64,000 nt of DNA from Vulcanimicrobiota bacterium. GTDB lineage: Bacteria; Vulcanimicrobiota; Xenobia; Xenobiales; JADMJV01. The notes under the pieces are model-generated. The model was not told the DNA's origin. It was given only the letters and a program-made list of their open reading frames with translations, and did no database searches. The stretch lies in NCBI GenBank assembly GCA_019637395.1, contig JAHBVR010000005.1:65312-129311 (forward strand), in the 5' to 3' direction. Position numbers and translations under genes: made by a program. Below are positions 7,307 to 23,675 of this stretch, piece after piece. Each line of letters begins with the position of its first letter. Within the stretch, counting starts at the first letter, position 1.

Positions 7307-8089
7307 TCACTCTCGGCTCTTGCTTTTACTACCGTTCTTTCCACTCGAACTATCCGAAGGCGCCCGGGGCTTCCGGCCGGAGTCCCCCTCGACCACCAGG
7401 CAGTGAGCATTGTCCCGCAGGCGATCCACCGTTGCCGAGGCAAGTAGCGGGTTGGAAAAGGCCTGGCCCCACTCGTTAAAGTCGAGGTTGCTGGTGATGA
7501 TGATGGGATTGCGCTCGTGCCGCTCCGCGATCAGCTCGTGGAAGTCCTCATCCGACGGTGGCCGGAGCGCTTTCAGGCCGAAATCGTCGAGAATGAGTAA
7601 GTCTGCCCGGGTCAGGTTCGCGAACCGGCGCTCGTAACTGCCGTCAGCACGGCCGGCGTTCAAGTGGGCGAGCATCTTCGTCGTGCTCAGATAGAGCACG
7701 TCGTAGCCACGGCGGCAGGCAACGTGGCCCAGCGCCTGGGCTAAGTGACTCTTGCCAACGCCGCTCGGGCCCACGATCAACACGTTCGACCTCTCCTCGA
7801 TGAAGGAGCAGGTTGCAAGGTCGTAGATCAGGGCCCGGTTCAGGCGTGGTCGGGCGTCGAAGTCAAAACCTTCCAGTGTTTTGTTGGACCGGAAACTGGC
7901 CCGCCGGAGCCGGGTCGTCAGCTTCTTTTGTTCCCGACGATCTACCTCATCGGTGGCAAGCTGCATCAGGAACTCGGTGTAGCTAAGCTTTTGGTCAATG
8001 GCCTGTCGGTTCCGCACTTCCAAGGTGTCCAGGATGCCCGACAGGCGCAGTTGCTTAAGTTTGGTGGTTAACTGAGGGGTCAGATTCAT
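7307..8089 (-). CDS. istB: IS21-family transposition helper ATPase IstB
   Basis: Walker A motif GPSGVGKSHLA, Walker B motif LLILDDFG, and an IstB-like C-terminus. Confidence 0.85.
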   Translation of the reverse strand: MNLTPQLTTKLKQLRLSGILDTLEVRNRQAIDQKLSYTEFLMQLATDEVDRREQKKLTTRLRRASFRSNKTLEGFDFDARPRLNRALIYDLATCSFIEERSNVLIVGPSGVGKSHLAQALGHVACRRGYDVLYLSTTKMLAHLNAGRADGSYERRFANLTRADLLILDDFGLKALRPPSDEDFHELIAERHERNPIIITSNLDFNEWGQAFSNPLLASATVDRLRDNAHCLVVEGDSGRKPRAPSDSSSGKNGSKSKSRE

Positions 8090-8199
8090 CTTAAATTCTC
8101 CTTTATTTTACTAGATGCGATAACGGCCGAAACAGGGCCGCCGAGGTGGCGACCTGGCCCGAGCTCGGCTCGGGCGGTTGCTTGGAATCACGGCGCCCT

Positions 8200-9774
8200 C
8201 TAGTTCATCGAGGGGCTAAACAGGTCAGACATCGGCCGTGCGAAGCGCGGAGAGAGCGCGGCAAAGGGCAGCTCAAGCTGGCCGGTTTCCGATTCGTCCA
8301 TCGGCAACTGGTCAAGCCCGTGCTCCAGAATTTTCTTTACTGTGTGATAGCGAATGTTGTCGTAAGCAATCGCACGGCGGCAAGCGTTGTTCAGTCTCTT
8401 CGCGCCGTATTTTTTGGCCAACCGCAAGACACCCTGAGCAGCGCGTAGACGGTCCAGGACTTTATCACCAAGGAGTTCGCTGATGAACTCGACGCAAAAG
8501 TCGCCGATCCTTGTAGCCTGCTCCTTGCACCATGCCGGGGTCTGGTTCAGGTAGGCCATCTTCTCCTCAGGCAGGTGGTCGTTGTTGGTCAGCCATTGGC
8601 CGGATCGTGTTGCGCGTGGGTGGCAGGCGACCATCTCCAAATTCTGGAACAACATGACGGTAGAATCGCCAGCCCTCAAGTCCAACTGTTTGCCCACCAA
8701 TCGAAAGGGCACCGAGTAATACGACTTCTGGAAAATCGCGTGGCAGTCAGGGTGGATTTTGGCAGTGGACCAGACGGCCAACTCCACCCTCTCCGCCGGC
8801 AGTGGCTTGAGTGCTGGCTTCTCTTCCTCCGCGAACACGGTTAATGGAACTAGATGGGTCGTTCCGTGGGTTCGATTTCCGGCTTCCCCCAGGACCCACT
8901 CCATCAACTGGCGATTGGCATCGCCGATGCCGGTGAACGTCCGAGGACTTTTGAGGAACGAGCGCTTTACATAGCGCACCCCAGACTCCACTGTTCCTTT
9001 GTGTTCCGGAGTTTTGGCCACACACGGTGATACCTGAAAGCCGTAACCGCGGGCAAACTCCCCGTAGCTCCTTTGGACCTGCGGGTCGTAGTAACAGGCC
9101 CGGATGATGGCGGCCTTCAGGTTGTCCGGCATGATCTTGGTCGGCACTCCGCCCCAGAACTCAAACGCGTTGCGATGGCACCGGAGCCAGGTGCTGGCAG
9201 TCTGGTCCCAGACGATTTCGGCATACTGGTGGCGACTGTGTGTCAGTGTCATCACGAAGAAATGGGTCTTGCGCGGCTTTCCGGTCACCGGGTCAGGTAA
9301 AATAGGGCCAGAGCCAAAATCGACCTGGGCAACTTCGCCAGGGGAGAAGTGCAGCCGTACGACCGGGTCAGGAATCGTCGCGGAAAGCTTCCGGACGAAG
9401 CGTCGCACCGAAGATGGGCTGCCAGTGTAGCCGTGGTTTTTGTTGAGATAGCTCCAGATCGTCTGGGCTTCCATCTTCTGCTTAACCCAGCCAAGAACTA
9501 ACTCACGATACGGCTCAACCTTTGAGGCTTGGGCTTGGCGAGGCTTTCTCCTGGCCTCCAGGGCAGCCAGAATCTCTTCCTGACTCGGCAACTCGGCTTC
9601 CGGATCCAGCCAGTTCATTTCCAGCGCAAGTCGTCGAATCTCATCGATCTTGCGCGGGCCCATCCGCAGGGCTGCCTGAATGAGTCGGCGGCCTTCGTTG
9701 CGCCGCAGACGGACGATTACATCCTGATAATGAAACACGTTGAGTCTCCTTCTTGCCACAAATGTGACCTCCAA
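8200..9774 (-). CDS. istA: IS21-family transposase IstA
   Basis: N-terminal HTH region, then the DDE/integrase core (HFSPGEVAQVDFG...THFFVMTLTHSRHQY), about 520 aa. Confidence 0.85.
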   Translation of the reverse strand: MEVTFVARRRLNVFHYQDVIVRLRRNEGRRLIQAALRMGPRKIDEIRRLALEMNWLDPEAELPSQEEILAALEARRKPRQAQASKVEPYRELVLGWVKQKMEAQTIWSYLNKNHGYTGSPSSVRRFVRKLSATIPDPVVRLHFSPGEVAQVDFGSGPILPDPVTGKPRKTHFFVMTLTHSRHQYAEIVWDQTASTWLRCHRNAFEFWGGVPTKIMPDNLKAAIIRACYYDPQVQRSYGEFARGYGFQVSPCVAKTPEHKGTVESGVRYVKRSFLKSPRTFTGIGDANRQLMEWVLGEAGNRTHGTTHLVPLTVFAEEEKPALKPLPAERVELAVWSTAKIHPDCHAIFQKSYYSVPFRLVGKQLDLRAGDSTVMLFQNLEMVACHPRATRSGQWLTNNDHLPEEKMAYLNQTPAWCKEQATRIGDFCVEFISELLGDKVLDRLRAAQGVLRLAKKYGAKRLNNACRRAIAYDNIRYHTVKKILEHGLDQLPMDESETGQLELPFAALSPRFARPMSDLFSPSMN

Positions 9775-9839
9775 TTTGGGTCCGTAGACCGATAGAGGTC
9801 ATGGCTAGATGAGCTCGAGGGCTAACCCATTCCGACAAC

Positions 9840-9931
9840 TGGATCCCGGTAGGTGCTCGCGGGTGGATCCTTTAGGTGCTCGCGAGTGGATCCTATGTGG
9901 TGCTCACCAGTGGATCCCGGTAGGTGCTGGC
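9840..9931. repeat. IS21 terminal multimeric repeats (4 copies of a ~23-bp unit); inverted copies lie at 7131-7176
   Basis: Direct visual alignment of GTGGATCC(CGGTA/TTTA/TATGT)GGTGCTC units. Confidence 0.75.
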
Positions 9932-10271
9932 ATCAATTGGTCAAATCCCCATACAGCCTGGAGATGAAGGCCGTGGCTTGACAAACAACAGAAATGCCAG
10001 GCGCGGGATCGGACTCGCAAGTTGGGTGCCCTAAATCGACAAAGCCTGTGGAAGCTGCCGTGCCTATGGAAAAATGCTGGGGCATTTTTCCACAGGCACT
10101 TGGATAACTTGCTCGCTTAGGCTCGCAAGTTACCCACAGCTCCCACAGGCACGACGACGATTACTATTGATAGATCTATATTTTATGGGGCTGGTGGCCG
10201 GGCTTCGCCCGGAACCGAGACGAACCCAGGGCCAGCACCGTGGGCGATAGCTGAGAGGCTGGCGCTTAGCG

Positions 10272-10306
10272 CCAGAACAAAGAAAAGCGGGCTCGCGGGC
10301 CCGCTT
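10272..10306 (-). terminator. rho-independent terminator downstream of the RHS-immunity operon
   Basis: Stem AAGCGGGC/GCCCGCTT with a 6-nt loop, followed on the minus strand by TTTTCTTTGTT. Confidence 0.55.
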
Positions 10307-10426
10307 AAAGATCGGCTTGGTTGAAAGACTTCCGGGTATTTCGACCCCGGCGGTCGAGGGTTCGTGGTTGGGGCTCACGCCCCAACCACGAACTCACTTT
10401 ACAGTGCCCAGAAACCCTGACGGTAT

Positions 10427-10798
10427 CTAGTCCGAAGTGCAAGGTTCGTCAAAGATCAGTGTAACAGCTTTCTGTTCCAACAAGTCTTGGATCTGCTCGC
10501 GTTTTGAGACTTCAAGTTCGACATAAGTCAACTCAATACCCGATTCGAGCTTGTCCTCCATCACTTCAATCAGCTTGCGCACGCCACAAAACACCATTCG
10601 AGCAGGCTTATCGTCACAGTGGGACGATCCCCACTCCAAGTCTTCGTGCTTCTTCCCAAGCGCAAGCGACTTGGCACTTGCCTCTTCTGAATTCTCCGCC
10701 TCAATCAAATGAATGTTCTCCCAAAGCGGAAACTTCTCTTGTCCTTCAAACTCAACCACATACAGGAGATGGGCACAGTACCACATCGCTTCCTCCAC
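10427..10798 (-). CDS. putative RHS-toxin immunity protein; may resemble the DUF4288 family
   Basis: A 123-aa acidic cytoplasmic protein encoded immediately 3' of the RHS gene. Its start abuts the RHS stop. This is the classical toxin-immunity arrangement. Confidence 0.55.
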   Translation of the reverse strand: MEEAMWYCAHLLYVVEFEGQEKFPLWENIHLIEAENSEEASAKSLALGKKHEDLEWGSSHCDDKPARMVFCGVRKLIEVMEDKLESGIELTYVELEVSKREQIQDLLEQKAVTLIFDEPCTSD

Positions 10799-13700
10799 TA
10801 ACTATAATTAACTTCACCGCGCTTGCCCTTGTTGGCACAGCCCTCAAATTTAAGAGCCTGCTTGATCTTCATTTTCTTCGCAGAATCAGTTGTGTTTTTC
10901 AGCAGTTCTCGCAGCCATTTGCAAATGTCTTCCTTCGTGGCGCATCTACCCAGAGTCGTCCGAGCTAAGCGCGTATACTCATTGGACTCCTTGCTACCAT
11001 TCTGAATGTCAGTAGATTGCCTCCTGCGCTCCTGAGCTTGCTTCATTCTCTCCCTCAGGTACTGGTCCTGAGACTTCGGAGTCGGCAACCATTCTGGAAC
11101 ATGTCTGCCGTATCTGTAAAGCCATTCCGAGTACCCTTCCTGAGAATTCCGCAATGCGTCTGCTTCAAATTCATACTCTCCAGCCGAGCTGGGAGGCTGA
11201 TAAGGCCAACGATTACGGTCGGTTCCTACCGGCACAGAGAAACCTCCGGGACCATCTGGGAGAGTGCCTCTCGTGTTAGGATTCCAGGGAACTGGCGCGG
11301 GCTCTGGCAAGCCCCCGCCGCCAAGATTGACGCTATCTGGCATCGACATTGGCGACCTGGGCAAAGCGCCGCCCATACCTCCACCAGGCAAAATGACTGG
11401 ACTGCCACCGCCAGGCCCAAGCCCAGTCGGGTCACTGAGAGACGCGGGGCTGTTGCCGGTGTAGACATATAGATTCGCGCCGGCATCGTGACCAACCGGG
11501 TCACGGGATAGAAAACGCATCAATCGAGGGTCGTAGTGTCTTGCGCGCATATATACGAAGCCTGTCAAGGGATCTTTGCGACATGCAAATCCCCCAACGA
11601 AGCTGTAGCACATACCGCCCGGCACGTTATCAAAGCTGCTTGCGAGGGCGTTACCCCAAGCATCTAGCTCGAATCTGGCAACGATGTCGCCTTGGTCATC
11701 GGTCACTAGACGCACTGAGCCCAGTGCGTCCGTGTGCACATCGTATCGATCCTCACCGCGAATGAAACTCAGCAATTCGCCTTCTGGAGCACAGTAAGTG
11801 GTCGTCAAAACGCCGTCGGTCTCGCGGATCACATCGACATTTTCCCACAAGAATGCCACCACTTGTGAGCCATCATCTCGAGAGAGCATTCGCCCGAAAT
11901 GGTCGTATGCATACGATACATCGACACTTCCTGGCCCCTGCACGCGGGTCAAAAAGTTACCATCCAGCGTGTCCCACGTATAAGTCCACGTGTCCACACC
12001 GTTGGTCTTACCCGTCATATTACCGTTGAGGTCGTAAGAGAACGTCCAAGTATCGCCACCTACGTCCTGTCGCATCACCTGATTCAACGAATTCAGGCGC
12101 TCCCCAGAACTCCAACCAGCGTCGTCGCGGACGTCTTCGCTGACGCCCAGGTCGTCGATAGTCGTGATGCGCAGAATGTTCCCCGCCTCATCATATCGGG
12201 TCCGTAAGACTCGCGAACCGGCATCACTACCGGCGTTGCAGGTCAGCTGGATGTCAGACAGAGTCGGCGTATCCGTCCCGTTGCCGGTCAGCACCGCCCG
12301 CACCATCGCATAGCGGCCCGTCTTGCCCGAGGGCAAGGCCTCGCCGGCGGGAGTCGTAAAATTCCCACCCCCGGTCGGCCCGAACCAGGCCGGAGGACTC
12401 ACAAAGTCCTCGAACTCGGCGTAGTCGTCGGCGACGCAGACCTCCAGCTCCACGTCGCAGCCGGGGGGCAGGTCCTCCACCCATGAGACCCTATCCCATG
12501 ACACGGATCGACCCGCATCATATATAGGACTGGTGTAGACTCCTTCGGTCGCCAGAGCGTTACCGTTCCGCTGCAGGTTGCTGAAGTGGAAGCTCCCTGC
12601 GGTCTGCTTCCCGTAGAAGTTAATCACCAGATTCATGTCATAGGTCGGGGAAGACCCGGTCGTGAACAGCGTGCTCCAGGTCGAAGCCCCCTGTTCGCGG
12701 TGGTAACCCTTAAAGATGTCTCCGGTCCGGGTCAGGCGAATCTGGCCGGCCGGGAACAGGCTGGTGTACCCGAAGGCCGAGCTCGAGCCCGGTAGCACCT
12801 GGCGGAAAGCTACGTTGTTGGCGGAGTTGGTCGACTTGGTGATCTCGATGGCGAACCACGCATAAATTCCGGGATAAGAGGGGGCCTCCAGGGTGTTCGG
12901 GGTCACCGCCAACCGGGCCAACATTCGGCCTCCTGAGTGAGTGAAGGCCGGATCCACCCCGAGGTAGTCCAGAGAGACGTCAAAGTCTCCGCTCAACACC
13001 TCGTTGTGATAGAGGTCCACGTTGTGATCTACCGGGTAGATGTTTCTTTCCGGGTAGCCCCCCCAGGAAGCGCTGTGAAACTCGTTGTCGATGCCCACGT
13101 GGTTGTCGACGGGAGCCCGGTGCAAGTGGCTCTGGTTGTGCAGTGCTCTTGGATAGGTGTAATGCAAGCCGTCCTTATGGCGCAGCTCGCATCCCACCGT
13201 GTCCATCTCGCCGGGAGCGCCTTGCTGGGTCAGTTGGCGACTCTCCACCCTCCAACGCTGCAAATTCAGCTCCGGGCCGGCAAAGTTGTCGTTGAACGGC
13301 AGCAGCTTCATGGTCTGCGTATTGTCGTCGAACTCCAGGCGCTGCCATTGGCCCTGTCTCCACACCGAGGGCTGATGAATGCAGAAGCGGTTATGGCTCT
13401 CCTCCACCAGGCGTCCGGCGCTATCGGTCAGGTAGGTGAAGGTGTCCAGATCGGTCTGCTGGGCGATGCGATCGCCCGCCAGACTGTACCCGTAGCGCAT
13501 CTCCATAAGAGGCTCGCTGCCCTGCACCACCTTGCTCAGCAATTTGCCCACGATGTCATACGACATCAGGTCGGTGAGCGAATTGTTGTGGCTGATCTGG
13601 GTGCAACGCCCGTCCGCATCATATTGCATGGAGGTGGTGTCTGCGTTGGCGTCCTCCACCGTCAGCAAGCGGCCCACGTCGTCTCGGCCCAGGCTGGGCA

Positions 13701-16700
13701 CGCTCCAAATGACCTCATCGCCCCCGTAGCGGGATGAACCGTAGCGAGCCACACCATAGAAGGCTCCCTCTTTCAGGCTCATCCTCTGGCCCGTTTCGTT
13801 GTATTCCGAAACCAGGCTGACCTGGTCGGCATACTGCTGGCCAATCAGGCGGTTTAGCGCATCGTACCGATAGTTCCAACCATTTCCACTACGCTCCACA
13901 GTGGATAGCAGGTTGCCCACCTTGTCGTAAGTCAGTGCTACCGTAGTTGTGTCCGGATACGTGATCCGTTCCAGGCGATGCAGCTCATCGTAAGCATAGA
14001 CGCGCTCCTGAGCCAGGTTGTCCTCATAGCCGGTCAGGTCTCCCGCCGCGCTATACGCGAACGATTCGGTGGTGTTATCCGGATAGAGGATGGTCTTGAG
14101 GCGGTGCAGGGCGTCCCACTCAAATTCGGTGTCCTGGTCCACTCCTTGCGATCGGAGGCGGAACAGCACCAGATCCATCTTTTCATCGTATTCGAAAAAC
14201 AGCTCGTTCCCCAGGCTGTCGGCCACGCGAATCACCCGATCCAGAGTATCAAACTCGCGCAGAATCGTCCGCCCGTCTGGGTCACGCGTCAAAAACGCTC
14301 GGCCCAGCCGGTCGTATTCCGTGCGCTGGCGGGCTCCGTCCGGGAAACAGACCTCACGCAGGTTCTCGCCGTCGAACTCAAAGCAAGTGCTCAGACGCTG
14401 TAGTTGCAGATTTTTGGCTCCCAGCGGCGCACTGCCCGAAGATAGCTTGAGCCGCGCCGAACCCAGTCCGGGCCGGCGCAACGAGGCCTGGATGTCACCG
14501 GGAACGTCCAGTCGGCTGCGCGGCACCTGCTCCCAATCCTGGCTGGTCGGCGCGTAGTCCTCGCCTTCCACGGTGTCCGCCAAAGCCGTGTGGGTGTTGG
14601 ATGGATAGTCTTTGTGCACTCGATACTGAAACTCCATGCGGGCTTCGGTGGTGCCGCTGGTGCCGTCTTCCTTGCGAACCAGGAAATGGGCAATATAGCG
14701 GCCGCCTGCACTGAGGGGAGTATTCTTCTGCTCCCAGGTATGCACCGAAGAAGTCAGCGGAAGATAAGCCTGACCGTTGGCCTCCACCCCGCGGTTGGCG
14801 CTTGCGTTGGGCGTCCAGTAGCGAGGCACGATTTCTCCCCAAGGATCTTCCCAACTATCCACGGCATAAGGTTTGCCTTCCTGGCCGCTCGGATTGTAGA
14901 GGACGTTCTTGGCGCCCTCCAATACGATGTCGTCCAGCTCTTCCTGGTTTCCGTTAGGCGAGGTCACACCCGTCACTCGGCCCAGAGAATCCAGAGCGTA
15001 GCGAAGCTTGGCCTGGTCGGCGTATTCCGTCTCGATCAACTGGTTGGCGCCGTCGTAGCGGAAGTTGGTGACCTTGCCGCGGACATCGGTGACCGTTTCC
15101 ACCTCTCCCGAATTGCGATAGGTCATCAAAGTGGTCTGTTCCAGCGCGTCGGTGATTTTCCACAAGCGTTGGTGCTTGTAGGCAAAGGCCGTCACCCGAC
15201 CTTCCTGGTCCTCGCTTTCGGTCAGACGCCCGCCGGCATCGTAGGTGCGGAAGCTCGAGTTGCCCGCCGCATCCTCTACTTCGATGACCCGGTTGCGGTC
15301 ATCAAAAGTAAACAAGGTCGTGCGCATGTCGGCATCGGTCACGCTGGTCACATTGCCGTTCAGGTCGTAGACGAAAGCCGTGGTGCCTCCCAGCGGGTCC
15401 TCCACGCTGGTCAGGTTCTTGTAGGCGTCTTCGTAGTAATAGAGAGTAGGATTGGTCTGGCCAGGCTCCAGCGAGCTGGTCAGAGTGCCGTCCAGTTCAT
15501 CGTACTCCTTGGTCCAGGTATTCCCGGACCCATCCACCACGCCGATGAGTTGGCCCGCCTCGTTATAGGCCATTCGCGTGGTGCGATTCTCATAGGGGTC
15601 GAAGGCAAGGGCCGAGAGCACGGCATCGCCCACCACGCTCAAGTCAAAATCAACTCCGTCCTCCACCTGCGTGGCATTGTTTCCACGCGCGCGAATCTCG
15701 ACCAGAATGTCGCCCTCGCCGGAGCGCACCGGGAAGGTTGCCCAGCAACCGCCGGCATTGTTGGTTATGCGGAAAGATTGGGTTCCCAAAGAGTCGGTGA
15801 CCAGCATCTCGACATCGTAGCCCAACTGTTCGTTGTATTGCATGGGCACATCGGAGTGCGGCGCGATGTCGGTGGCGCAGGTATACAGCGACAGGTTGAA
15901 GTCGGTCTCTTCTTCCATCTCCAGGGTGAACTGGAAGCGACGGTAGGGGACATCTTCCTCATCCAGCGCCGAGCGCCAGTAGCCCTGGGTCGACTTGATC
16001 CTTCCTTCGTCCGCGTAACGCAAGTTACGGGGGTCTCGGTTGTGAAAGTCGTCGATCAGGTCGAGCTCGGTGATCACCGGCTCCACATCGCCCACGCCCT
16101 TGCTGACGGCGGAAATGTAAGCCGGTAGAGAAGCCACGTCGGCACTGCCGGTGGCACCGCACAGCAAATGCCCATCCTTGCCATAGTGACCCTGCCACTC
16201 GCCCTGAACAGAGAAATTGGCCCGCCCCGGAGTCACCGAGACCAGGCGGTCCTGTGAATACTCATAGTGAGTCATAAGGCCGTTTCCATCCAACGCTAAC
16301 ACCATATTTCCTCGCAGATCATAGACATAGCGTCGAAAGCGCATGTTGGCCTGGTCGCGGATACCCAGGTAGGCAACCCCATTTTCGAAATTCCAGGGAT
16401 CGAAATTCAGATGACCCGAGGCTTCGTAGAGCAATTGCGACTGGGGCCCCCAGAAGAAACGGCGTTGATGATTGTTCGGATCGATGATGCGGCGCAGGTT
16501 GCCGGTCAGGTCAAACACATACCGCCAGCTCTCCCCATTCGCGTCTGTGAGGGTGGTTCGATGAAAGGAGGCTATCTGGCCTGCTTCCGGGCCGGAAACA
16601 TACTCAAAATGAGGGTCGGCATAGGTATAGGTCAGAACTTGTCCCCGCGAATCGGTAACCGTCAGCAACTGGCCGGACGCTCCGAAGGTATAGGCCCACT

Positions 16701-17451
16701 CCTGGTCCACCAACGGCATCTCTTCCGGGTCGCGCGGGATCGGGTCGATACGGCCCGTGCTCAGGTGGTCGTTATAGCGGAAGGTGGTAACGCAACCCTC
16801 GGGTCCCTGGACTTCCACCAGGTCGCCGTTTTCATCGAGCTGCAAGACCCAATCCTTGCCACGGGGGTCGGTGATGGTGATGGTGTCGGTGCCGTAGGCA
16901 AGGAGAATTTTTCGACCCACGGAGACGCCGACGCAGTTCTCCTCTACCTCGGCCAACTGGTCGCTCACATAGCTCAGCTCCAGAGAGTTGCCGATGGTAT
17001 CCAGGCAGCGCAGCAGACGGCCGTTTTCGTCGAACTGGAAGATATTGCCGTCTGGATAGTAGCTGATCTGCCATTCGTCGCCCGGCAGCGAGGTCAGGGT
17101 GAGCTTGTCAAACACCCCTTCATCCAGATCCAGCTCCCAGGTGCCGCTGTTGTCCAGGAAGACAAAGCGCCTGCCGCTCTCATCCACGAAAGCGGGAGCG
17201 GTCGAACTGGGCTCGATCCGGAGTTGCCAGTTGTGATTCCAACCATAGCCGAAACCTTGTGTGGAATCTGCCGACAGACTGTTATAGACCAGGGTGAAGT
17301 TCAGCGAAGGTCCGATGGTCGGAACCGAGATCAAGTTCATGGTCCGAAAAAAGTTGCCGTTTTCCACCCGGACTTTTTCGCTCAGGGCACAGCCCTGAAA
17401 GAGGGATTGATAGCCGTCCACAGAGATCGGCTGGGGAAACATCTGATTCAT
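10798..17451 (-). CDS. RHS/YD-repeat polymorphic toxin (2217 aa). It has a LamG/ConA-like insert and an uncharacterised C-terminal toxin domain.
   Basis: Dozens of YD repeats (YDxxGRL, RYxYDxxGNL). The RHS core end motif NLYVYTGNSPASLSDPTGL lies at ~11411-11470. It is followed by ~205 aa of unrelated sequence. AGGAG RBS upstream of the ATG at 17451. Confidence 0.9.
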   Translation of the reverse strand: MNQMFPQPISVDGYQSLFQGCALSEKVRVENGNFFRTMNLISVPTIGPSLNFTLVYNSLSADSTQGFGYGWNHNWQLRIEPSSTAPAFVDESGRRFVFLDNSGTWELDLDEGVFDKLTLTSLPGDEWQISYYPDGNIFQFDENGRLLRCLDTIGNSLELSYVSDQLAEVEENCVGVSVGRKILLAYGTDTITITDPRGKDWVLQLDENGDLVEVQGPEGCVTTFRYNDHLSTGRIDPIPRDPEEMPLVDQEWAYTFGASGQLLTVTDSRGQVLTYTYADPHFEYVSGPEAGQIASFHRTTLTDANGESWRYVFDLTGNLRRIIDPNNHQRRFFWGPQSQLLYEASGHLNFDPWNFENGVAYLGIRDQANMRFRRYVYDLRGNMVLALDGNGLMTHYEYSQDRLVSVTPGRANFSVQGEWQGHYGKDGHLLCGATGSADVASLPAYISAVSKGVGDVEPVITELDLIDDFHNRDPRNLRYADEGRIKSTQGYWRSALDEEDVPYRRFQFTLEMEEETDFNLSLYTCATDIAPHSDVPMQYNEQLGYDVEMLVTDSLGTQSFRITNNAGGCWATFPVRSGEGDILVEIRARGNNATQVEDGVDFDLSVVGDAVLSALAFDPYENRTTRMAYNEAGQLIGVVDGSGNTWTKEYDELDGTLTSSLEPGQTNPTLYYYEDAYKNLTSVEDPLGGTTAFVYDLNGNVTSVTDADMRTTLFTFDDRNRVIEVEDAAGNSSFRTYDAGGRLTESEDQEGRVTAFAYKHQRLWKITDALEQTTLMTYRNSGEVETVTDVRGKVTNFRYDGANQLIETEYADQAKLRYALDSLGRVTGVTSPNGNQEELDDIVLEGAKNVLYNPSGQEGKPYAVDSWEDPWGEIVPRYWTPNASANRGVEANGQAYLPLTSSVHTWEQKNTPLSAGGRYIAHFLVRKEDGTSGTTEARMEFQYRVHKDYPSNTHTALADTVEGEDYAPTSQDWEQVPRSRLDVPGDIQASLRRPGLGSARLKLSSGSAPLGAKNLQLQRLSTCFEFDGENLREVCFPDGARQRTEYDRLGRAFLTRDPDGRTILREFDTLDRVIRVADSLGNELFFEYDEKMDLVLFRLRSQGVDQDTEFEWDALHRLKTILYPDNTTESFAYSAAGDLTGYEDNLAQERVYAYDELHRLERITYPDTTTVALTYDKVGNLLSTVERSGNGWNYRYDALNRLIGQQYADQVSLVSEYNETGQRMSLKEGAFYGVARYGSSRYGGDEVIWSVPSLGRDDVGRLLTVEDANADTTSMQYDADGRCTQISHNNSLTDLMSYDIVGKLLSKVVQGSEPLMEMRYGYSLAGDRIAQQTDLDTFTYLTDSAGRLVEESHNRFCIHQPSVWRQGQWQRLEFDDNTQTMKLLPFNDNFAGPELNLQRWRVESRQLTQQGAPGEMDTVGCELRHKDGLHYTYPRALHNQSHLHRAPVDNHVGIDNEFHSASWGGYPERNIYPVDHNVDLYHNEVLSGDFDVSLDYLGVDPAFTHSGGRMLARLAVTPNTLEAPSYPGIYAWFAIEITKSTNSANNVAFRQVLPGSSSAFGYTSLFPAGQIRLTRTGDIFKGYHREQGASTWSTLFTTGSSPTYDMNLVINFYGKQTAGSFHFSNLQRNGNALATEGVYTSPIYDAGRSVSWDRVSWVEDLPPGCDVELEVCVADDYAEFEDFVSPPAWFGPTGGGNFTTPAGEALPSGKTGRYAMVRAVLTGNGTDTPTLSDIQLTCNAGSDAGSRVLRTRYDEAGNILRITTIDDLGVSEDVRDDAGWSSGERLNSLNQVMRQDVGGDTWTFSYDLNGNMTGKTNGVDTWTYTWDTLDGNFLTRVQGPGSVDVSYAYDHFGRMLSRDDGSQVVAFLWENVDVIRETDGVLTTTYCAPEGELLSFIRGEDRYDVHTDALGSVRLVTDDQGDIVARFELDAWGNALASSFDNVPGGMCYSFVGGFACRKDPLTGFVYMRARHYDPRLMRFLSRDPVGHDAGANLYVYTGNSPASLSDPTGLGPGGGSPVILPGGGMGGALPRSPMSMPDSVNLGGGGLPEPAPVPWNPNTRGTLPDGPGGFSVPVGTDRNRWPYQPPSSAGEYEFEADALRNSQEGYSEWLYRYGRHVPEWLPTPKSQDQYLRERMKQAQERRRQSTDIQNGSKESNEYTRLARTTLGRCATKEDICKWLRELLKNTTDSAKKMKIKQALKFEGCANKGKRGEVNYS

Positions 17452-17469: not shown

Positions 17470-18063
17470 TTACTGTTTCTTGTTGCTGGGACAGGTCGGT
17501 CCGCCGCGGGTTTTAGGAACCGGCCGGTTCTTGTAGATACCGAGGCGCTCCATATCGGTGGTCCCGATGCCGTGGTTACTGGGCAGGCCGCCCGCTAACC
17601 CGACTCCGCCAGCGCCGACCGAACCCGAGCTGCGCAGCAGTCCGCCGCCAAACCCGGGGGGCAGCAGGGGCGCAATCCAGGCCAGGTCGTCGATGAAATA
17701 GGGCGATGCCCGCTTGATTTGAGGGCTCGCCGAGTAATCATGGTAAGAACGGCCCGTTTCCTGACCGCCCACCGGCACGCCGCCGCAAGCGCCATTGCTG
17801 CCGCCCGCCGCCACCGCACTGGCTCCGCTGAGCGAAGCTCCGCCGGCGCCAGCCGGTCCACCGCCCGGGCCGGCGGCTCCACCGCACAAACTGGCGGTGC
17901 CGCCGCTGGAAGCCAGAGACTGTTGGCCCATCACCAGCAGGCGATTGGCCTGTTGGCTGTAGAGCACGCTTCCAACTGAACCATTCAGCCCGTCCGTCAC
18001 AAAAGGTGTATAAACTGCCCTGGCATTCACCAATTGGGCTATTTTAGGATGTAAAAGGAACAT
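17470..18063 (-). CDS. glycine-rich repeat protein (197 aa, 3 Cys), candidate substrate or partner of the adjacent radical SAM/SPASM enzyme
   Basis: ATG sits 4 nt after the radical SAM stop, with a GGAGGAGG RBS. Composition is GG(A/S/P)-rich (GGAAGPGGGPAGAGGASLSGASAVAAGGSNGACGG). It ends 18 nt before the RHS start. Confidence 0.55.
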   Translation of the reverse strand: MFLLHPKIAQLVNARAVYTPFVTDGLNGSVGSVLYSQQANRLLVMGQQSLASSGGTASLCGGAAGPGGGPAGAGGASLSGASAVAAGGSNGACGGVPVGGQETGRSYHDYSASPQIKRASPYFIDDLAWIAPLLPPGFGGGLLRSSGSVGAGGVGLAGGLPSNHGIGTTDMERLGIYKNRPVPKTRGGPTCPSNKKQ

Positions 18064-18067
18064 ACAT

Positions 18068-19300
18068 TTAAACCTCCTCCGAGATAGGTCGCGCCTCCTG
18101 AAACATCAGGGGCATTTCTTGTTGAGATAGGACCGTCGCGAGAAACTGCGGGTCCCCCCGAAGCTCCTGGTAGATGCGGTCGACCTGTAGGACCAGCTCC
18201 CGATTCAGGAGGCACTGGTTGGGATGAACCCCGTTCAAACCCAGACCGGCCTCCAGGGGAATCACGCGACAGCCGCCCGCGCATACGGTGCGGGCGATGC
18301 AGGTGGCGCAATCGGGGATCTGCGCCCGCGACAGGTGGACATAGTCCCAGCGTCGCGGAGGCAGACCAAGCTGGCGCCCGGCCACGCCGAATCGCTCGTG
18401 TTTCCGATAGAGATAGCGATGGCAGGGCAGAATGTTGCCTGCCGTGTCAAAGGCGAGCAGAGAAGTGCCCAGCGGGCAGGCCTTGGCCGGGCGCTCCTCC
18501 GTGCCGTAACGCAGGTGGTATTGGAGCAAACAGCTCCAGTAGTGGTGTAAAGCCGCAATCTTGCCGGCCCGAAACTCCGAGATGAACCAGTCAGCCAGGC
18601 GCTCAGACTGCATCCGCAGCTCCTCATGGTGCTGGCTCCAATCGGCCTCGACGACCGGCGCCAGCAAGATCCAACCCGCCCCCAGCTCCTGAGCGGCCAG
18701 CACCTTATCCAGCAGGTTCAGAGAACCAGGATGAAAGGTCATGCGGATGCTGGAGCTGGGACTCCAGGAAATCAGCTTGTTCAGATTGCGGCGCAGGTGG
18801 CCCCAGGAGTTACCCCCCGAAACCTTGGGCCTGAAATGGTGACTGGCTTCGTCCCCATCCAGACTGATCAGCAACTGCACCTCGCCTTCTTGCACAAAGC
18901 GACGAACCGACTCACCAGCCAGGGTTCCGTTGGTGGTCACTCCCAGAACGACCCGGTCCGCCCTCGGCCGAGTCCGCAAGTAACCCAACAAATCCAGCAG
19001 CAGCTCGCTGCGCAACAACGGCTCGCCCCCGAAGAAGTTGAGCCCTATGCACTCCTGGCCGGAAACCTCCGGCTGCAGGCAGTAGTCCACCACCTTCTTA
19101 GCCGTCTCGAAGGTCATGTGGCGGGGCTGCTTTTTGACGAAGCAATAGGTGCAGCGCAAATTGCACTCCTCGGTCACATAGACCATGAACGTAGTGACGG
19201 GCACCAAAGGCCGGCTCTCACGAACCGGCAAAGACATAAGCACAGTCAGACCCTCCTTAAAGTAGCGCCAGGCAGACGGCTTTGACGGCCATCCAGGCAT
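18068..19300 (-). CDS. radical SAM / SPASM-domain enzyme (peptide-modifying or maturase type)
   Basis: CNLRCTYC (CxxxCxxC) near the N-terminus. GGEPLL motif. A C-terminal Cys cluster CATCIARTVCAGGCRV is typical of SPASM auxiliary clusters. Confidence 0.8.
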   Translation of the reverse strand: MPGWPSKPSAWRYFKEGLTVLMSLPVRESRPLVPVTTFMVYVTEECNLRCTYCFVKKQPRHMTFETAKKVVDYCLQPEVSGQECIGLNFFGGEPLLRSELLLDLLGYLRTRPRADRVVLGVTTNGTLAGESVRRFVQEGEVQLLISLDGDEASHHFRPKVSGGNSWGHLRRNLNKLISWSPSSSIRMTFHPGSLNLLDKVLAAQELGAGWILLAPVVEADWSQHHEELRMQSERLADWFISEFRAGKIAALHHYWSCLLQYHLRYGTEERPAKACPLGTSLLAFDTAGNILPCHRYLYRKHERFGVAGRQLGLPPRRWDYVHLSRAQIPDCATCIARTVCAGGCRVIPLEAGLGLNGVHPNQCLLNRELVLQVDRIYQELRGDPQFLATVLSQQEMPLMFQEARPISEEV

Positions 19301-19601
19301 AAAAGCAACGTTGTGGCGGCAACCCGCCCAGGTCGCGAACGACCTGCTCGACCGTCAGCTCCTGGTCCGCCCTGCGCCCCACCAATCGCTCGTAGAGGTA
19401 GCCTCCACAGGCGATGGCGGGCACACAACGGGGACAAGAGAACGCCAGGGCTTTCACGATGCCGTGTGCGTCGATTTCCAGTTGTAGTTGAAAGTAGTGG
19501 CCCTGTTCCGCGCTTCCCACCCTACTTTGATGAGTCGGAGCGTCCAGCGAACCGAAGCCTCGAGCATTGTCGAAGTAGCGGCGGGTCTGCGGGGAAAACA
19601 T
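19257..19601 (-). CDS. IscU/NifU-N-terminal-like domain protein with altered cluster ligands
   Basis: It aligns over its length with IscU (NxRxxGSLD ... AIA ... PP..C motifs). The first ligand Cys (CGD) and the His are replaced; two Cys are retained. Confidence 0.55.
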   Translation of the reverse strand: MFSPQTRRYFDNARGFGSLDAPTHQSRVGSAEQGHYFQLQLEIDAHGIVKALAFSCPRCVPAIACGGYLYERLVGRRADQELTVEQVVRDLGGLPPQRCFYAWMAVKAVCLALL

Positions 19602-19603
19602 TA

Positions 19604-19948
19604 CTAAAAAGGTAGTATCTCGAGGATGAGTAGTAGTATTTTACGGATCTCCTCCGCCTGGAACTCAGCCTTCTGCCCCTTCAGTTGCTGCAATCTCTCG
19701 ATTACCTCGGGCTTGCGGGGATCTGGGACGAAGACCGGGGCTTCGACCTCTTCTGGTTCCGGCTCGGGTTCCGGCTCGACAATTTCATATCCGCCCGCAT
19801 AGTAAGCGGCTTCTACGAATTCGTTGGCCGAGGGCGCCGGAACGTCTACTGTATAGCGATGCTGTTCTTTTTCAGCGGAGAACTGTTTCAAGGCCTCGTC
19901 AAAATCAAAGCCCAGTTTATCAAAAATGACTCGTTCGATTTTCAACAT
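19604..19948 (-). CDS. hypothetical acidic protein (114 aa) with an EPEPEPEPEE tract
   Basis: ORF tightly packed between the fibre gene and the NifU-like gene. Confidence 0.4.
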   Translation of the reverse strand: MLKIERVIFDKLGFDFDEALKQFSAEKEQHRYTVDVPAPSANEFVEAAYYAGGYEIVEPEPEPEPEEVEAPVFVPDPRKPEVIERLQQLKGQKAEFQAEEIRKILLLILEILPF

Positions 19949-19950
19949 GA

Positions 19951-21036
19951 TTACACTCCTGCATAAATGATGTAGTTCAGGACCATGGTGGGCTGAACGT
20001 TGTTATGAGATCCTCCACCACCGGTAGAGTTGCTGGAAGCGCCAGAACTAAAGTTCTGCATGACGTTGTTAGCCTGCGGTGCCACATAGGCTTGGAAATA
20101 GATGGGATTCCAAGGCAAAGTATGGCTATGACTGGGAATCTCTGACGTAATCAGCGTGTGAGATTGCGAACCCCCTGACTGGCCCATCGTCGTGCTCGTC
20201 AGCCGGGTGCTCAATCTCGCGGCGTTCGAGCCCCCCATATTGTCAAGACCGGCAACCACTCGGCCGCGGAGATCGGGAATTCCGAAAGTGCCCGCTCCCG
20301 ATCCGAAGGTCGTGCCGATGATCGAATAAAGAGAAGCGTAAGTTGCCGTGCTGACCAATTGGCCATAGCACATCAGCCATCCACTCGGAGCGGTTACGCC
20401 CGCGAACGGGATCACGGAGCCAATCGGGCCGATGGAACCACTGGCACCTGTGGGTCCGGTGGCGCCCGCAGGTCCCGTTGCTCCGGTTGCTCCATTTGAG
20501 CCAGGGCCACCAGTTGCACCAGTGGCGCCCGCAGGGCCTGTTGCACCGGTCGCTCCATTGGAGCCAGGGCTACCGGTTGCTCCAGTAGCACCGGTCGCGC
20601 CAGTTGCACCCGCCGCGCCCGCCGGCCCGACACCCCCCAGCATCTCGAAGCGACCGCCGCTCGCGTCGTTATAAACGGCGGCTACCATTTGATTGGCCAG
20701 AATATCTCCCGAGGAGAGGGCGCTTCCGCCCGCTTTCGTGAGAGATTTTGCCGTCAGGGCGCCGCCGGGACCGACCACCTGCAAGGTGGAAGCCCCGGTA
20801 TTGGCGTTGGCCGCCTTGAAAACCACCAACATGCCCTTCTTGTAGGCCGTGAACTGATTCTGGTTGTCAGGAGAACCGTCGAAGTTGACTTGATAGGCGT
20901 CAGCCGAGCCGACGTCATCGCGGTAGAAAGCCTGGCCGTCCTCCAGGTCGGCCAGAACCGGGAATAGTTGGGCTATGTGCTCGGCCTCGATTACATCGCC
21001 CGTATTGATTGTATTGTCTGATAATGGACTGGACAT
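19951..21036 (-). CDS. collagen-like (GxT/GAT repeat) phage tail-collar domain fibre protein
   Basis: Gly-X-Y tract [31 protein letters not shown]... is followed by [49 protein letters not shown]..., the phage tail-collar signature. AAGGAA RBS before the ATG at 21036. Confidence 0.75.
20412..20640. repeat. tandem 9-bp-periodic GC-rich DNA repeats encoding the collagen-like G-A-T tract
   Basis: Repeated GCACCGGT / GCGCCAGT / GCTCCAGT units are visible. Confidence 0.6.
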
Positions 21037-21163
21037 TTGGATTCCTTTCGGTTGCTCCCGAGGCAGCACGAAGCCAGACCCGGTGCGAATGAGATTTTTA
21101 GAACTAGAAAATGGGTCTACAAGGAGTCGGGGAGCTCAGGGGGGCTCCCGGCTACTTTCGGGC

Positions 21164-22261
21164 CTACAGAAGGGCATGCTGGCGCCTCCCTTCGCAGGTT
21201 AAGCAATGAAGCAGATTGTTTTGCAGTCGCTGCCGGTCCATTTCGGGCAGGGCAGCTTCCTGCAAAAGTTTCTCCGTGCGCTCTCGCGCCTGGCCAAAAC
21301 GCCCGGTATAAAACTCCGCCACAGCCAGTTCATCCTGCGCCCGCCACCGGTAGGCGGGTTCTTCTAAAAAGAGCCCCTCCACCGGCATTTTCAGCTCGGC
21401 CGCCCTGCCGGCGAAAAGGTGGGCCAGATTCCATTGGCCGTGCTCCCGATAAAACTGAGCCAGCTCGGTCAGCGCTTCGGCTCGATAGGGATTCAACTGG
21501 TAAGCAAAGAGCAGTTCCGCCGGCACCTGAGTCGGATTTTGCAGGCGTTTCAGCAGCCGTGCCCGCTCCAGATGAGCCACATAGCGCTCCTCCACCCAGC
21601 CCTCCAGCCGGCAACGGCGCTCATAAGCTTCGGCCGCCTCCGGCAGGAGACCGGCATCGCGATAACTTTGCGCCAGATAAAACACATGGCGGGGCTCATC
21701 GGGCTCGGCTACCAGGGCTTTCTCGAGCAGCCGCGCGTCGTCCAGATATTTCTGAGGATTGCGAGACCGGGCGCCCTCCCCAGCGCTTACGTGATATTCG
21801 AGCCCCGGAAGATACCCGGGAACCGTGGCTTCCGGGCAATCCGCATACTCGTGAACCACTCCCTTATAACGCCAGGCCAAAGCAGTGCGGAAAAGCTGGG
21901 GACGGTAATAACGTACCTCTCCAAAGTGCACCCGAAGCGAATACCAATCCGCCTGCAGCTCCGGCGTTTTAAGTTCATGCCTTTCGAGCCGATCATCCGC
22001 GTCCACCACCAGGTGGTAGTCGCCCCGCCCCCGGTTCAGCTCAAAGGCCTCACTGCGATTCTCGGCAAAATTGCGCCAGGGACGGTGGTGCAGTTGGCCC
22101 GGTAAGTGGCTCAATACCGACTCCACAAGGGCCGGAGTATCATCGCTCGAGCCCGTGTCCACCACGGTCCAGCCGTCCAACAACGGCAGCACCGACCGGA
22201 GACAGCGCTCGATCACGGCGGATTCATCTTTTACAATCATGCATAAACTAATGGTCGACAT
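21164..22261 (-). CDS. family-2 glycosyltransferase with C-terminal TPR repeats
   Basis: N-terminal SLCMIVKDES...VVDTGSSDDT (GT2 DxD region). C-terminal TPR-like helices. Confidence 0.7.
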   Translation of the reverse strand: MSTISLCMIVKDESAVIERCLRSVLPLLDGWTVVDTGSSDDTPALVESVLSHLPGQLHHRPWRNFAENRSEAFELNRGRGDYHLVVDADDRLERHELKTPELQADWYSLRVHFGEVRYYRPQLFRTALAWRYKGVVHEYADCPEATVPGYLPGLEYHVSAGEGARSRNPQKYLDDARLLEKALVAEPDEPRHVFYLAQSYRDAGLLPEAAEAYERRCRLEGWVEERYVAHLERARLLKRLQNPTQVPAELLFAYQLNPYRAEALTELAQFYREHGQWNLAHLFAGRAAELKMPVEGLFLEEPAYRWRAQDELAVAEFYTGRFGQARERTEKLLQEAALPEMDRQRLQNNLLHCLTCEGRRQHALL

Positions 22262-22426
22262 GGAACTCCTTTCGCGCTCTCTCCGGGCATAGCCAGGCTA
22301 AGCCCGGAGAGAGCGTCATTTCATGTGGGATTGTGAGAAAGCTATTTCTTGGTCAGCCGGACAGCCGCTTCCAAGGCGGCCTCAGTAAAAAGGCGGGCGG
22401 GTCCGGGCCGTGATAGTGAATTGGAG

Positions 22427-23101
22427 CTACCATCGGCTTCTATACCCCCTTACATCTACATGACAAAATCCGTCCAGCGGATAGAAACCAACGCCACCGT
22501 GGTCCCCAATCACCGCCTCACAAACCTTAAGCAGGGCTTCGGTGGAAATACCCGCTGCCTGAATGTCGGCCGCCAGCCCGTCGATATGAGTACTGTTGCT
22601 TGCCGCACCTTTTAGTGAGGCGTTATAGGCCGGCGGTCTATAAGCCGAGTTTATCGTGATCGGCGCACCACCCAGTTGGGTGCGGATCATCTCCAGTCGC
22701 CGCACCAACTCCGGCGACACACGCAAGAATGCGTAGGAGCTGTCGTGACACATGAATTCCCCCGCCGTGAAGTGTTCGCTGAGCCGGTCCGATGGTTTCG
22801 CCGCCAGCAGCGGCGCGGCCGTGTAGGCGCCGGTGGTGCCATACCGAGCCGCTTCGGCCTCGGACAGCACTGCTTTGGGAATCGACAGGCCGCTGGGGTA
22901 TTTCACTCCTTCGCCGGCGCCGGAAGCTCCCGGCCTGGGACCCTCGGGGAGACCCAGGAAGAACTTCTGCCGCGCGTCGTCTCGCCCGACACGCAGACCC
23001 AACTGTTCGGCCACCGTCATCAGCAACGGCAGTTGGGATTCTTCAATCTCGATCGGGCGCCGCCAATCTTCCGGGGGCGCAAACACTCGCCACTTATTCA
23101 T
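22427..23101 (-). CDS. peptidase M15-family (D-Ala-D-Ala carboxypeptidase / endolysin-like) protein
   Basis: SNSTHIDGLAADI and FCHVDVRG motifs (HxxxxxxD ... H zinc site), preceded by HFTAGEF. Confidence 0.7.
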   Translation of the reverse strand: MNKWRVFAPPEDWRRPIEIEESQLPLLMTVAEQLGLRVGRDDARQKFFLGLPEGPRPGASGAGEGVKYPSGLSIPKAVLSEAEAARYGTTGAYTAAPLLAAKPSDRLSEHFTAGEFMCHDSSYAFLRVSPELVRRLEMIRTQLGGAPITINSAYRPPAYNASLKGAASNSTHIDGLAADIQAAGISTEALLKVCEAVIGDHGGVGFYPLDGFCHVDVRGYRSRW

Positions 23102-23408: not shown

Positions 23409-23675
23409 CAGGAAGCCTCCTCTCGAATCGTCTCCAACACGGTGGGACCTCTCTCTCTATAGCGTTGCCGGGGGCTTCTTGAAGAAGCCACCGTTGGCCA
23501 GATCCTGGTTTCGAGCCACTCGACCCTGAATACAGGCAGTGAAAACTCCCCGGCCCAATAGTTTTCCAATGGCAGGCAGACATAATGGATCTCCAATTGC
23601 TTAGTCTATTTGGGCAATAGCAAAGCTAGAACCCCGGGCTTGAGTGACTTAAACGGACCGCTTAAATTCTAAAAC

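Follow-up and report, generated by a model that had tools for sequence, protein, structure and literature searches.

The DNA analysed here (the window) is a stretch of 64,000 nucleotides from contig JAHBVR010000005.1 of a Vulcanimicrobiota bacterium. It carries on its minus strand a large RHS/YD-repeat gene directly followed by a small gene encoding a DUF4288 protein. An earlier reading made from the letters alone (the sequence-only reading) had proposed that these two genes encode an RHS polymorphic toxin and its cognate immunity protein. The analysis reported here favours, with a probability of about 0.75, an RHS polymorphic toxin and a cognate DUF4288 immunity gene that form a swappable cassette, the tip of the toxin being predicted to act in the cytoplasm. 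The features on which this interpretation is built are listed below, residue numbers (amino acids, aa) being those of the RHS protein.

10798 to 17451, minus strand: RHS/YD-repeat polymorphic toxin gene, from the open reading frame (ORF) and its Pfam and NCBIfam domains.
17158 to 17376, minus strand: N-terminal DUF6531 domain, from Pfam (aa 26-98).
11419 to 11607, minus strand: end of the RHS-associated core with DPVG...DPTGL, from TIGR03696 (aa 1949-2011).
11209 to 11418, minus strand: Gly/Pro-rich tail linker, from composition (aa 2012-2081).
11074 to 11208, minus strand: 45-aa module preceding the tip, WPYQPP..EGYSEWL..GRHVPEWLPTPK, from a phmmer match to protein P0005 (aa 2082-2126).
10801 to 11073, minus strand: variable tip with its connector, i.e. 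a connector helix (aa 2127-2150) and the conserved tip (aa 2151-2217), from a phmmer match to protein P0003.
10427 to 10786, minus strand: DUF4288 gene (PF14119), putative immunity gene, 119 aa, with a GGAGG Shine-Dalgarno sequence.

The minus-strand ORF from 10798 to 17451 encodes an RHS/YD-repeat protein of 2217 aa. Its start codon is an ATG, and an AAGGAG Shine-Dalgarno sequence lies 7 nt before it. Pfam recognizes DUF6531 at aa 26-98 and 13 stretches of RHS_repeat (PF05593, E 4.9e-71), and NCBIfam recognizes YD_repeat_2x (TIGR01643, E 6e-48) and, at aa 1949-2011, Rhs_assc_core (TIGR03696, 62 bits against a cut-off of 32.5). A 6.6-kb ORF with such RHS domain matches cannot be due to chance, and the RHS polymorphic-toxin scaffold with a canonical core end put forward in the sequence-only reading is borne out by these domains. 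The best PDB matches of the protein by sequence are Rhs effectors of type VI secretion systems (T6SS), Tse5 and Tse15 among them, with E values from 1e-30 to 1e-18. TccC2 and a bacterial teneurin-like protein are also matched, and all these matches are limited to the repeats and the core end.

The core ends in ..RDPVGHDAGANLYVYTGNSPASLSDPTGL, in accordance with PxxxxDPxGL, and displays the paired motif DPxG...DPxGL, with the second DPxG about 20 residues upstream. The DPTGL motif had been recognized before and placed at about 11411; the motif stands, but its position is 11419-11433 (aa 2007-2011), the codon of L2011 being at 11419-11421. In solved structures of RHS, TcC and bacterial teneurin-like proteins, the paired DPxG...DPxGL is an aspartyl autoprotease (PMC13018210). 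Because the same pair is found here, DPVG...DPTGL is likely an aspartyl autoproteolysis site that would be cut after L2011.

Two long regions of the protein, aa ~375-690 and ~1195-1800 (~15380-16330 and ~12050-13870 in the window), contain neither simple YD motifs nor a Pfam match. They may be surface-exposed inserts, for instance receptor-binding domains. The second of them is also present in a paralogous RHS protein of the same species (locus L003, described below). The first 60 aa reach a hydropathy maximum of only 1.18 and show no hydrophobic N-terminal region. When the N-terminus was used as a query, no match was obtained in the genome contig collection, and the core end retrieved from metagenome contigs RHS genes at 28% identity only. 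No second copy of the RHS gene, the tip or the DUF4288 gene was found in the 64-kb window.

Downstream of the core, the protein carries a tail of 206 aa (aa 2012-2217, window 10801-11418). The sequence-only reading had quoted this tail correctly and described it as a single domain of about 205 aa; the length is 206 aa and the tail is composite, with the tip restricted to the last ~67-85 aa. The order is a Gly/Pro linker, the 45-aa module, a charged connector and a basic helical tip. The linker holds 19 Gly and 17 Pro in 80 aa, and no homologues of it were found. The conserved tip (aa 2151-2217) has a pI of 9.7 and a charge of +7.7, and ends in ..ALKFEGCANKGKRGEVNYS. The hydropathy of the whole tail does not exceed 0.57 and the tip contains no hydrophobic segment. 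The tip and the downstream gene have a GC content of 0.48-0.49, compared with 0.59 for the core.

Homologues of the tail were searched with phmmer (query aa 2048-2217, exhaustive search of 1.84 billion representative proteins), and only two meaningful matches were obtained. Protein P0003 (E 1.3e-10) aligns with query positions 85-167, corresponding to aa 2132-2214, and is the only true tip homologue of this search. It is 51% identical to the window tip over the last 67 aa, and the residues shared are LG.CATKEDIC..L.ELLK...DS..K..I.QALKF.GC.NK.KR.E. Protein P0005 (E 1.1e-4) aligns with query positions 27-81 (aa ~2074-2128), i.e. the region of the 45-aa module only. It is an orphan RHS C-terminal fragment of the paralogous locus and, beyond the module, bears a wholly different, Cys-rich tip. 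A 556-aa repeat protein (P0004) was rejected as a tail homologue, its match being a low-complexity one to the Gly/Pro linker only.

No known toxin fold was found for the tail, in agreement with the former suggestion. The tail and tip have no above-threshold match in Pfam, NCBIfam or PHROGs, comparison with PDB sequences returned only noise (E>=0.1), and a word-index homology search with 205 aa retrieved nothing. The tip alignment gave no match in metagenome contigs and the tip gave none in viral contigs. Structure prediction of the residues past DPTGL, a check that had been advised, was performed with AlphaFold2 from three sequences only. The model consists of six helices with a mean predicted local distance difference test (pLDDT) of 72 and a predicted TM-score (pTM) of 0.38, and the pLDDT exceeds 80 over the tip helices. 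Foldseek comparison of this model with the PDB and BFVD gave no match at E<=0.001. The best Foldseek match, YmgB (2oxl; 55 columns, E 1.8), was judged to be generic small-helix similarity and discarded. The tip matches no described toxin family above threshold; it would be a new, unusually small basic tip type on a known RHS class, and not a new kind of system.

The gene that follows was assigned to DUF4288 (PF14119) with 41 bits (cut-off 27) and an E value of 2.4e-10, the match spanning positions 1-82 of the 84 of the profile. It had been described as a 123-aa acidic protein starting at the RHS stop. The acidic character stands (pI 4.6, net charge -14), but the start and length do not. The GTG at 10798, listed as the start, overlaps with the stop codon of the RHS gene, while an ATG at 10786 starts 11 nt past it. 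The latter is preferred, giving a protein of 119 aa, because GGAGG lies 5-6 nt upstream of it and the homologues begin with MWYCAH. The translation signals of the RHS and DUF4288 genes are coupled. The DUF4288 protein contains no hydrophobic or transmembrane segment, and its charge is complementary to that of the basic tip. A 99%-identical "DUF4288 domain-containing protein" is recorded at NCBI from a Candidatus Eremiobacteraeota metagenome-assembled genome (MAG). No match to the protein was found in PHROGs or in viral contigs, and no mention of "DUF4288" was found in the literature searched.

An AlphaFold2 model of the DUF4288 protein, built with 14 homologues, shows a beta-rich alpha/beta fold (pLDDT 86, pTM 0.78). 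Foldseek retrieved no match to it in the PDB. Designed TIM barrels, the sole profile matches in the PDB, were judged spurious as relatives. Compared with its 82%-identical homologue, the gene displays a ratio of non-synonymous to synonymous changes (pN/pS) of 0.13, and is under purifying selection. Across 14-15 proteins that are 34-44% identical to that of the window, the residues H6, E23, N24, G68, R70, K71, E85 and E92 are invariant. This strict conservation hints either at an interface with the invariant K/N/K/R motif of the tip or at an enzymatic activity.

The association of tip and DUF4288 was then found on other scaffolds, as the sequence-only reading had recommended to search. Loci are designated below by L numbers. 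In L004, a contig from ENA, P0003 forms the terminal part of an RHS fragment that stands as an orphan and in which ..RFISRD..DVDGL (..RFISRDQLHTQNRYDYAAGSPTVFVDVDGL) is followed by a Pro/Ala linker and then by the tip. A 124-aa DUF4288 gene lies 14 nt past the P0003 stop, and its product is 35% identical to the DUF4288 protein of the window. The DUF4288 profile search retrieved 14 proteins. In five further independent loci (L010, L011/L012, L013-15, L007-9 and L021), the DUF4288 gene directly follows an RHS end. The former claim that the downstream gene is a cognate immunity gene is supported by these five loci together with the tip homologue P0003. The genes preceding DUF4288 are as follows.

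L010, Gammaproteobacteria MAG: an array of orphan RHS C-terminal ends (RHS-CT), in which a 241-aa RHS-CT is followed by DUF4288, by an RHS-CT with Tlde1 and by further members.
L011/L012: an RHS end with a tip.
L013-15: an RHS end with a tip.
L007-9: a frameshifted copy of the tip, located after a 4171-aa LamG/PKD/RHS protein.
L021: an ORF ending in ..LIQAQKQLGCRNEGKERRGQT*.
L006: a YD-repeat fragment.

The RHS-end tips that precede DUF4288 all carry G-[CE]-x-N-x-x-K-[RE] at their end, inside a helix rich in K and R. Those of the gammaproteobacterial type measure about 55 aa and follow the pattern SKGGKQNVRDTG[LF][IM]GV.T..I..RL...S...KKRL.KELK.R..RNK.KR. Ahead of the tip, a transmembrane-like glycine-zipper stretch, NPVAGAIGGGAIAGPPGAVVGAVVGFGIGLFIG (hydropathy 1.75), occurs in L010 (7273-7998), L011/12 (L011 148-762) and L007-9 (L007 7447-7848). 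The tails of the window, L004 and L013-15 are devoid of such a hydrophobic stretch.

The pair is delimited by recognizable boundaries. Downstream of the DUF4288 gene, two further features were identified:

10240 to 10397, minus strand: conserved cassette-closing element of ~155 nt, with a 14-bp hairpin and an intrinsic terminator at 10285-10306.
7307 to 9774, minus strand: IS21-family element, with IstA at 8200-9774 and IstB at 7307-8089 (Pfam).

Copies of the ~155-nt element are present in L003 at 11777-11932 (95.6% identity) and 2799-2947 (79.5%), and all three cassettes are closed by it. Its terminator stem carries compensatory changes, and no Rfam family matched it at gathering score. Recombination of the cassettes may use it as the flank on the 3' side. 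An 82-aa ORF at 10130-10378 overlaps this conserved non-coding element and has no matches; it was treated as spurious. The IS21 element is the boundary of the locus and lies outside the RHS system. Several direct copies of its terminal repeat, GGATCCAC..GCGAGCACC, were observed at ~9830-9950.

The identical 2217-aa protein is encoded in assembly GCA_026129085.1, on contig JAHCIS010000003.1. This contig is 99.6% identical at the nucleotide level to the window from 27447 to 7265, and synteny does not extend beyond the far edge of the IS21 element (7265). The divergence at this point reflects either a genuine rearrangement or a repeat at which the assembly broke off. The same assembly contains L003, in which a paralogous RHS protein of 2202 aa is encoded. 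Over the last 212 core residues the two proteins share 70% identity, and the large insert at aa ~1430-1800 is common to both. The L003 protein has a Cys-rich tail unrelated to that of the window, followed by a 97-aa ORF. Further along L003, the paralogous RHS locus is succeeded by a mobile element and then by the orphan RHS-CT P0005, which bears a third tip.

The same mobile element was noted directly upstream of an orphan RHS-CT in two unrelated contigs, L003 (3271-9941) and L004 (106-6547). It encodes an XRE helix-turn-helix (HTH) protein, a primase (Toprim/Zn-ribbon), two tyrosine recombinases and a protein of ~250 aa (253 aa in L003), as well as ParE in L003. This element may move or displace RHS tips. 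The cassette is regarded as swappable because of its low GC content, the existence of paralogous RHS genes with other tips and the presence of the ~155-nt element at every cassette end. These data fit a module that would be exchangeable by recombination, its 5' border being the core end and its 3' border the conserved element.

Taken together, these features suggest the following mechanism. The 2217-aa protein would build a YD-repeat shell, and the aspartyl-protease motif would cut after L2011, leaving the 206-aa tail loose inside the shell. The 45-aa module, which is common to tails of this lineage, would possibly function in entry or as an adaptor, while the basic helical tip of ~67-85 aa would be the toxic part. 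The tip would be transferred to a neighbouring cell and act in its cytoplasm. The producer would be protected by the acidic cytosolic DUF4288 protein, which would bind the tip one-to-one. Autoproteolysis, encapsulation of the tail, release into the target cell and neutralization by DUF4288 binding are all proposed here by analogy with characterized systems. The cytoplasmic site of action is suggested more weakly, since it is deduced from the immunity protein being soluble and acidic. As a tentative guess, put at somewhat below even odds, the tip could target a nucleic acid or the machinery that handles nucleic acids; its strong positive charge, its terminal helix rich in K and R and the hint of Ntox34 discussed below point that way.

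A number of observations weigh against this reading. Some concern the distribution of DUF4288. In L005, the sole locus in genome contigs, a cytochrome c protein precedes the DUF4288 gene and no link to RHS is seen. The most distant homologue, L016/17, has DUF4288 away from RHS genes. The closest homologue of the window protein (82% identity; L001/L002) has no recognizable tip in the available 156 nt upstream, where at most a possible degenerate ..EGASKGECTGR* ending can be read. Others concern the proteins themselves. Neither a conserved His nor an evident catalytic set is present in the tip, whose size (~55 aa in the gammaproteobacterial tips) would be very low for an enzyme. The invariant polar His, Glu, Asn, Arg and Lys residues of DUF4288 are unusual for a pure binder. 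Neither a signal peptide nor a PAAR or other trafficking domain was detected by Pfam and hydropathy ahead of DUF6531 in the RHS protein. No PAAR, VgrG, T6SS, TcA/TcB or extracellular contractile injection system gene was found among the ~55 ORFs scanned in the window (most ORFs of at least 150 aa on plausible strands), as had already been stated for PAAR, VgrG, T6SS and TcA/TcB. Moreover, both the toxicity of the tip and the protection by DUF4288 are predictions from sequence.

The relationship between the tips is a further point on this side. Reciprocal hidden Markov model searches between the window/L004 tips and the gammaproteobacterial tips fail, and their homology is not statistically established. 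With hhalign, the two types align over the last 25 columns only, DSAKKMKIKQALKFEGCANKGKRG against SSKDKKRLEKELKARGERNKEKRC, with a P value of 0.0014 and a probability of 17%. What links them is their location at the extreme RHS C-terminus, the DUF4288 gene downstream and the shared terminal motif, which is also found in the intermediate L021. The two tip types probably share an origin, at least for the terminal motif that would face the immunity protein.

Among the other explanations, the tip could be a very divergent member of Ntox34 (PF15606), which would make it a named toxin type with another immunity family. Ntox34 is an all-alpha domain of RHS scaffolds with the motifs GNxxD, K, C, C, K and WxCxH and with Imm-HEAT immunity (Zhang et al. 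2012), and members of the family are predicted nucleases or RNases. In Pfam, the window tip matches this family only (at profile positions 38-75 of 80, with E 0.17-0.09), and its 12.5-13.3 bits are half of the 25 required for gathering. C..C, K and F-x-G-C-x-N occur in the window and L004 tips at positions matching the Ntox34 motif layout, and Q-N-V-R-D is found close to the start of the gammaproteobacterial tips. However, Asn takes the place of the WxCxH His in the window and L004 tips, the window tip lacks GNxxD, and neither the L004 tip nor the gammaproteobacterial ones match Ntox34. The Ntox34 effector Nte2 of Neisseria cinerea is toxic in the cytoplasm of Escherichia coli and is neutralized by the product of the neighbouring gene. 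The immunity gene here encodes DUF4288, with its beta-rich alpha/beta fold, instead of Imm-HEAT. Membership of Ntox34 is therefore considered unlikely.

It is quite improbable that the tail is a non-toxic cargo and that DUF4288 is a chaperone, a regulator or an enzyme travelling with RHS ends. The invariant H6, E23, N24, R70, K71, E85 and E92 do resemble an active or ligand site more than a fast-evolving interface, DUF4288 also exists outside RHS contexts, and no known toxin fold was detected in the tail. On the other hand, the position, size, charge complementarity and lower GC content of the pair are hallmarks of toxin/immunity modules. The orphan-cassette arrays beside known toxin tips (Tlde1 in L010) and the frameshifted orphan copies also argue against a cargo.

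A membrane-active tip, pore-forming or depolarizing like the C-terminal part of Tse5, is highly doubtful. The glycine-zipper hydrophobic stretch before the gammaproteobacterial tips and the small, helical and cationic nature of the tip would agree with it. In contrast, no hydrophobic segment is present in the tails of the window, L004 or L013. Immunity proteins against membrane-acting toxins are usually membrane proteins, whereas DUF4288 is soluble, strongly acidic and devoid of a transmembrane segment.

Finally, the Cys-containing tip (CATKEDIC...GC) is hardly credible as a substrate of a radical SAM (rSAM)/SPASM enzyme, i.e. a cross-linked cargo resembling ribosomally synthesized and post-translationally modified peptides within the RHS shell: PapB-like rSAM/SPASM and NifU-like genes do lie in the tight co-oriented string of the RHS gene, the rSAM gene being two genes upstream, three Cys (including C-x3-E-D-x-C) are common to the tips of the window and of L004, and both other tails at the paralogous locus are rich in Cys, but the gammaproteobacterial tips lack these Cys, no rSAM gene is within view of the L004 orphan, and nearer candidate substrates exist, notably a 197-aa Gly-rich protein.

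The toxin/immunity interpretation can also be compared with characterized systems. Like the T6SS Rhs effectors (Salmonella bongori Rhs, 8qjb/8qjc; Pseudomonas aeruginosa Tse5, 8cp6; P. protegens RhsA; Acinetobacter baumannii Tse15), the window protein has a YD shell, a DPxGL core end, a variable toxin part predicted to be encapsulated and an adjacent immunity gene. It differs in that neither PAAR nor VgrG, nor a pre-PAAR transmembrane region or an Eag chaperone, was found in it or in the window ORFs scanned, in its tip family, and in its length of 2217 aa with two long stretches without simple YD motifs. The N. cinerea pair Nte2/Nti2, in which Nte2 is a PAAR-Rhs-Ntox34 protein, resembles the present one by a small all-helical RHS C-terminus, by cytoplasmic action (of Nte2) and by a partly similar motif layout; the window tip differs by scoring 12.5 against 25 bits, by the absence of the WxCxH His and of GNxxD, and by DUF4288 replacing Imm-HEAT.

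The bacterial teneurin-like protein BiTLP (PDB 9pt5/9ifo) is a T6SS-independent polymorphic toxin of 2237 aa with a YD shell; its C-terminal domain, of ~15 kDa, is cleaved, its immunity gene lies next to it, and some proteins of this type have no signal peptide (PMC13018210). The window protein is similar in length, YD shell, cleavage motif and neighbouring immunity gene. However, the PDB match is confined to the core end (aa 1806-2011). The BiTLP superfold combines an FN-plug, NHL and the YD-shell; no NHL match was found in the window protein at E<=0.1, nor any N-terminal adhesion, TIP or lipoprotein signals. The TcC component of ABC (Tc) toxins (TccC2, 6l7i) likewise has an RHS cocoon, an aspartyl autoproteolysis motif and an encapsulated hypervariable region, but its partner TcB/TcA is absent from the window ORFs scanned. 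That an immunity gene lies next to the RHS gene suggests a role against bacteria and not against eukaryotes.

As for genome organization, orphan rhs-CT/rhsI cassettes of Enterobacteria, reportedly the subject of studies by Jackson et al. in 2009 and Koskiniemi et al. in 2014, show the same arrangement of a main RHS gene followed by displaced core-end/tip/immunity fragments, exchange through core-end homology, and tips of lower GC content. Unlike in those cassettes, a ~155-nt hairpin/terminator element is found here at every 3' edge, and the orphans of L003 and L004 come after a primase/tyrosine-recombinase element. The tail also recalls the bipartite CdiA-CT toxins, said to have been described by Willett et al. 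in 2015, in its succession of a shared N-terminal module and a variable tip (entry and toxin domain logic). The scaffold is RHS in the present case and not a type V secretion system filament, and the function of the 45-aa module is putative.

The RHS gene comes last but one in a tight co-oriented string that ends with DUF4288, in which gaps do not exceed 18 nt from the fibre gene onward. The genes upstream of it, in the order of transcription, are:

21164 to 22261, minus strand: GT2-TPR (glycosyltransferase family 2/tetratricopeptide repeat) gene.
19951 to 21069, minus strand: tail-collar/collagen-repeat fibre gene (PHROG tail protein, E 3e-28).
19604 to 19948, minus strand: 114-aa acidic protein, without PHROGs match.
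19257 to 19601, minus strand: NifU-like gene.
18068 to 19300, minus strand: PapB-like radical SAM/SPASM maturase gene.
17470 to 18063, minus strand: 197-aa Gly-rich protein with three Cys, without PHROGs match.

The genes from 17470 to 22261 may share a transcript with the RHS gene. The phage-like fibre gene noticed in the sequence-only reading corresponds to the tail-collar/collagen protein at 19951-21069. The 197-aa ORF is in frame with the RHS ORF, from which it is separated by one TAA and six codons. The RHS protein likely initiates separately because it has its own AAGGAG Shine-Dalgarno sequence; read-through of the TAA, should it occur, would fuse the 197-aa protein to RHS. No obvious short precursor peptide was seen near the rSAM/SPASM gene.

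Further upstream and elsewhere in the window, the following genes were recorded:

22427 to 23101, minus strand: M15 endolysin gene.
24160 to 24780, minus strand: ImmA/IrrE-like metalloprotease gene.
30626 to 33052, minus strand: GspD-like secretin gene.
60702 to 61790, minus strand: GspF/PilC-like (T2SS-F) gene.

The annotation of GCA_026129085.1 places an XRE-type HTH gene between the endolysin and the ImmA/IrrE-like genes. No capsid, sheath or baseplate genes were found in the phage-derived module (19951-24780, minus strand). Lysis-dependent release, or a role of the neighbouring genes in RHS delivery, is conceivable. From the secretin and PilC-like genes, the organism is predicted to have an outer membrane and a type II secretion system (T2SS) or type IV pilus machinery. 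These two genes show no evident link to the RHS gene. A 297-aa PTP-like phytase/DSP phosphatase encoded at 39667-40560 (minus strand) matches PF22785 ('Polymorphic toxin system, DSP-PTPase phosphatase') with an E value of 6e-8.

The small size of the tip and its lack of a conserved His/acidic set leave room for a non-catalytic, binding-type toxin. Its most far-reaching form, a strongly basic mini-toxin of 55-67 aa and two to three helices that would disable a target in the cytoplasm by binding and not by catalysis, on an RHS protein exported without a T6SS through the phage-derived module (endolysin and fibre) and the rSAM operon, is a long shot.

To our knowledge, the interbacterial weapons of uncultured Eremiobacterota are essentially unstudied. 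The finding is incremental in that the catalogue already has hundreds of toxin/immunity families and new RHS tips are expected; its interest would be higher if the tip proved non-enzymatic or the export of RHS T6SS-independent or otherwise novel. A small basic tip that was formerly unclassified now has clear boundaries, and DUF4288, a Pfam family without function, gains a concrete candidate role as an immunity protein. For the Eremiobacterota, the exchange of RHS cassettes is documented here through a main gene, a paralogue, an orphan and a 3' element.

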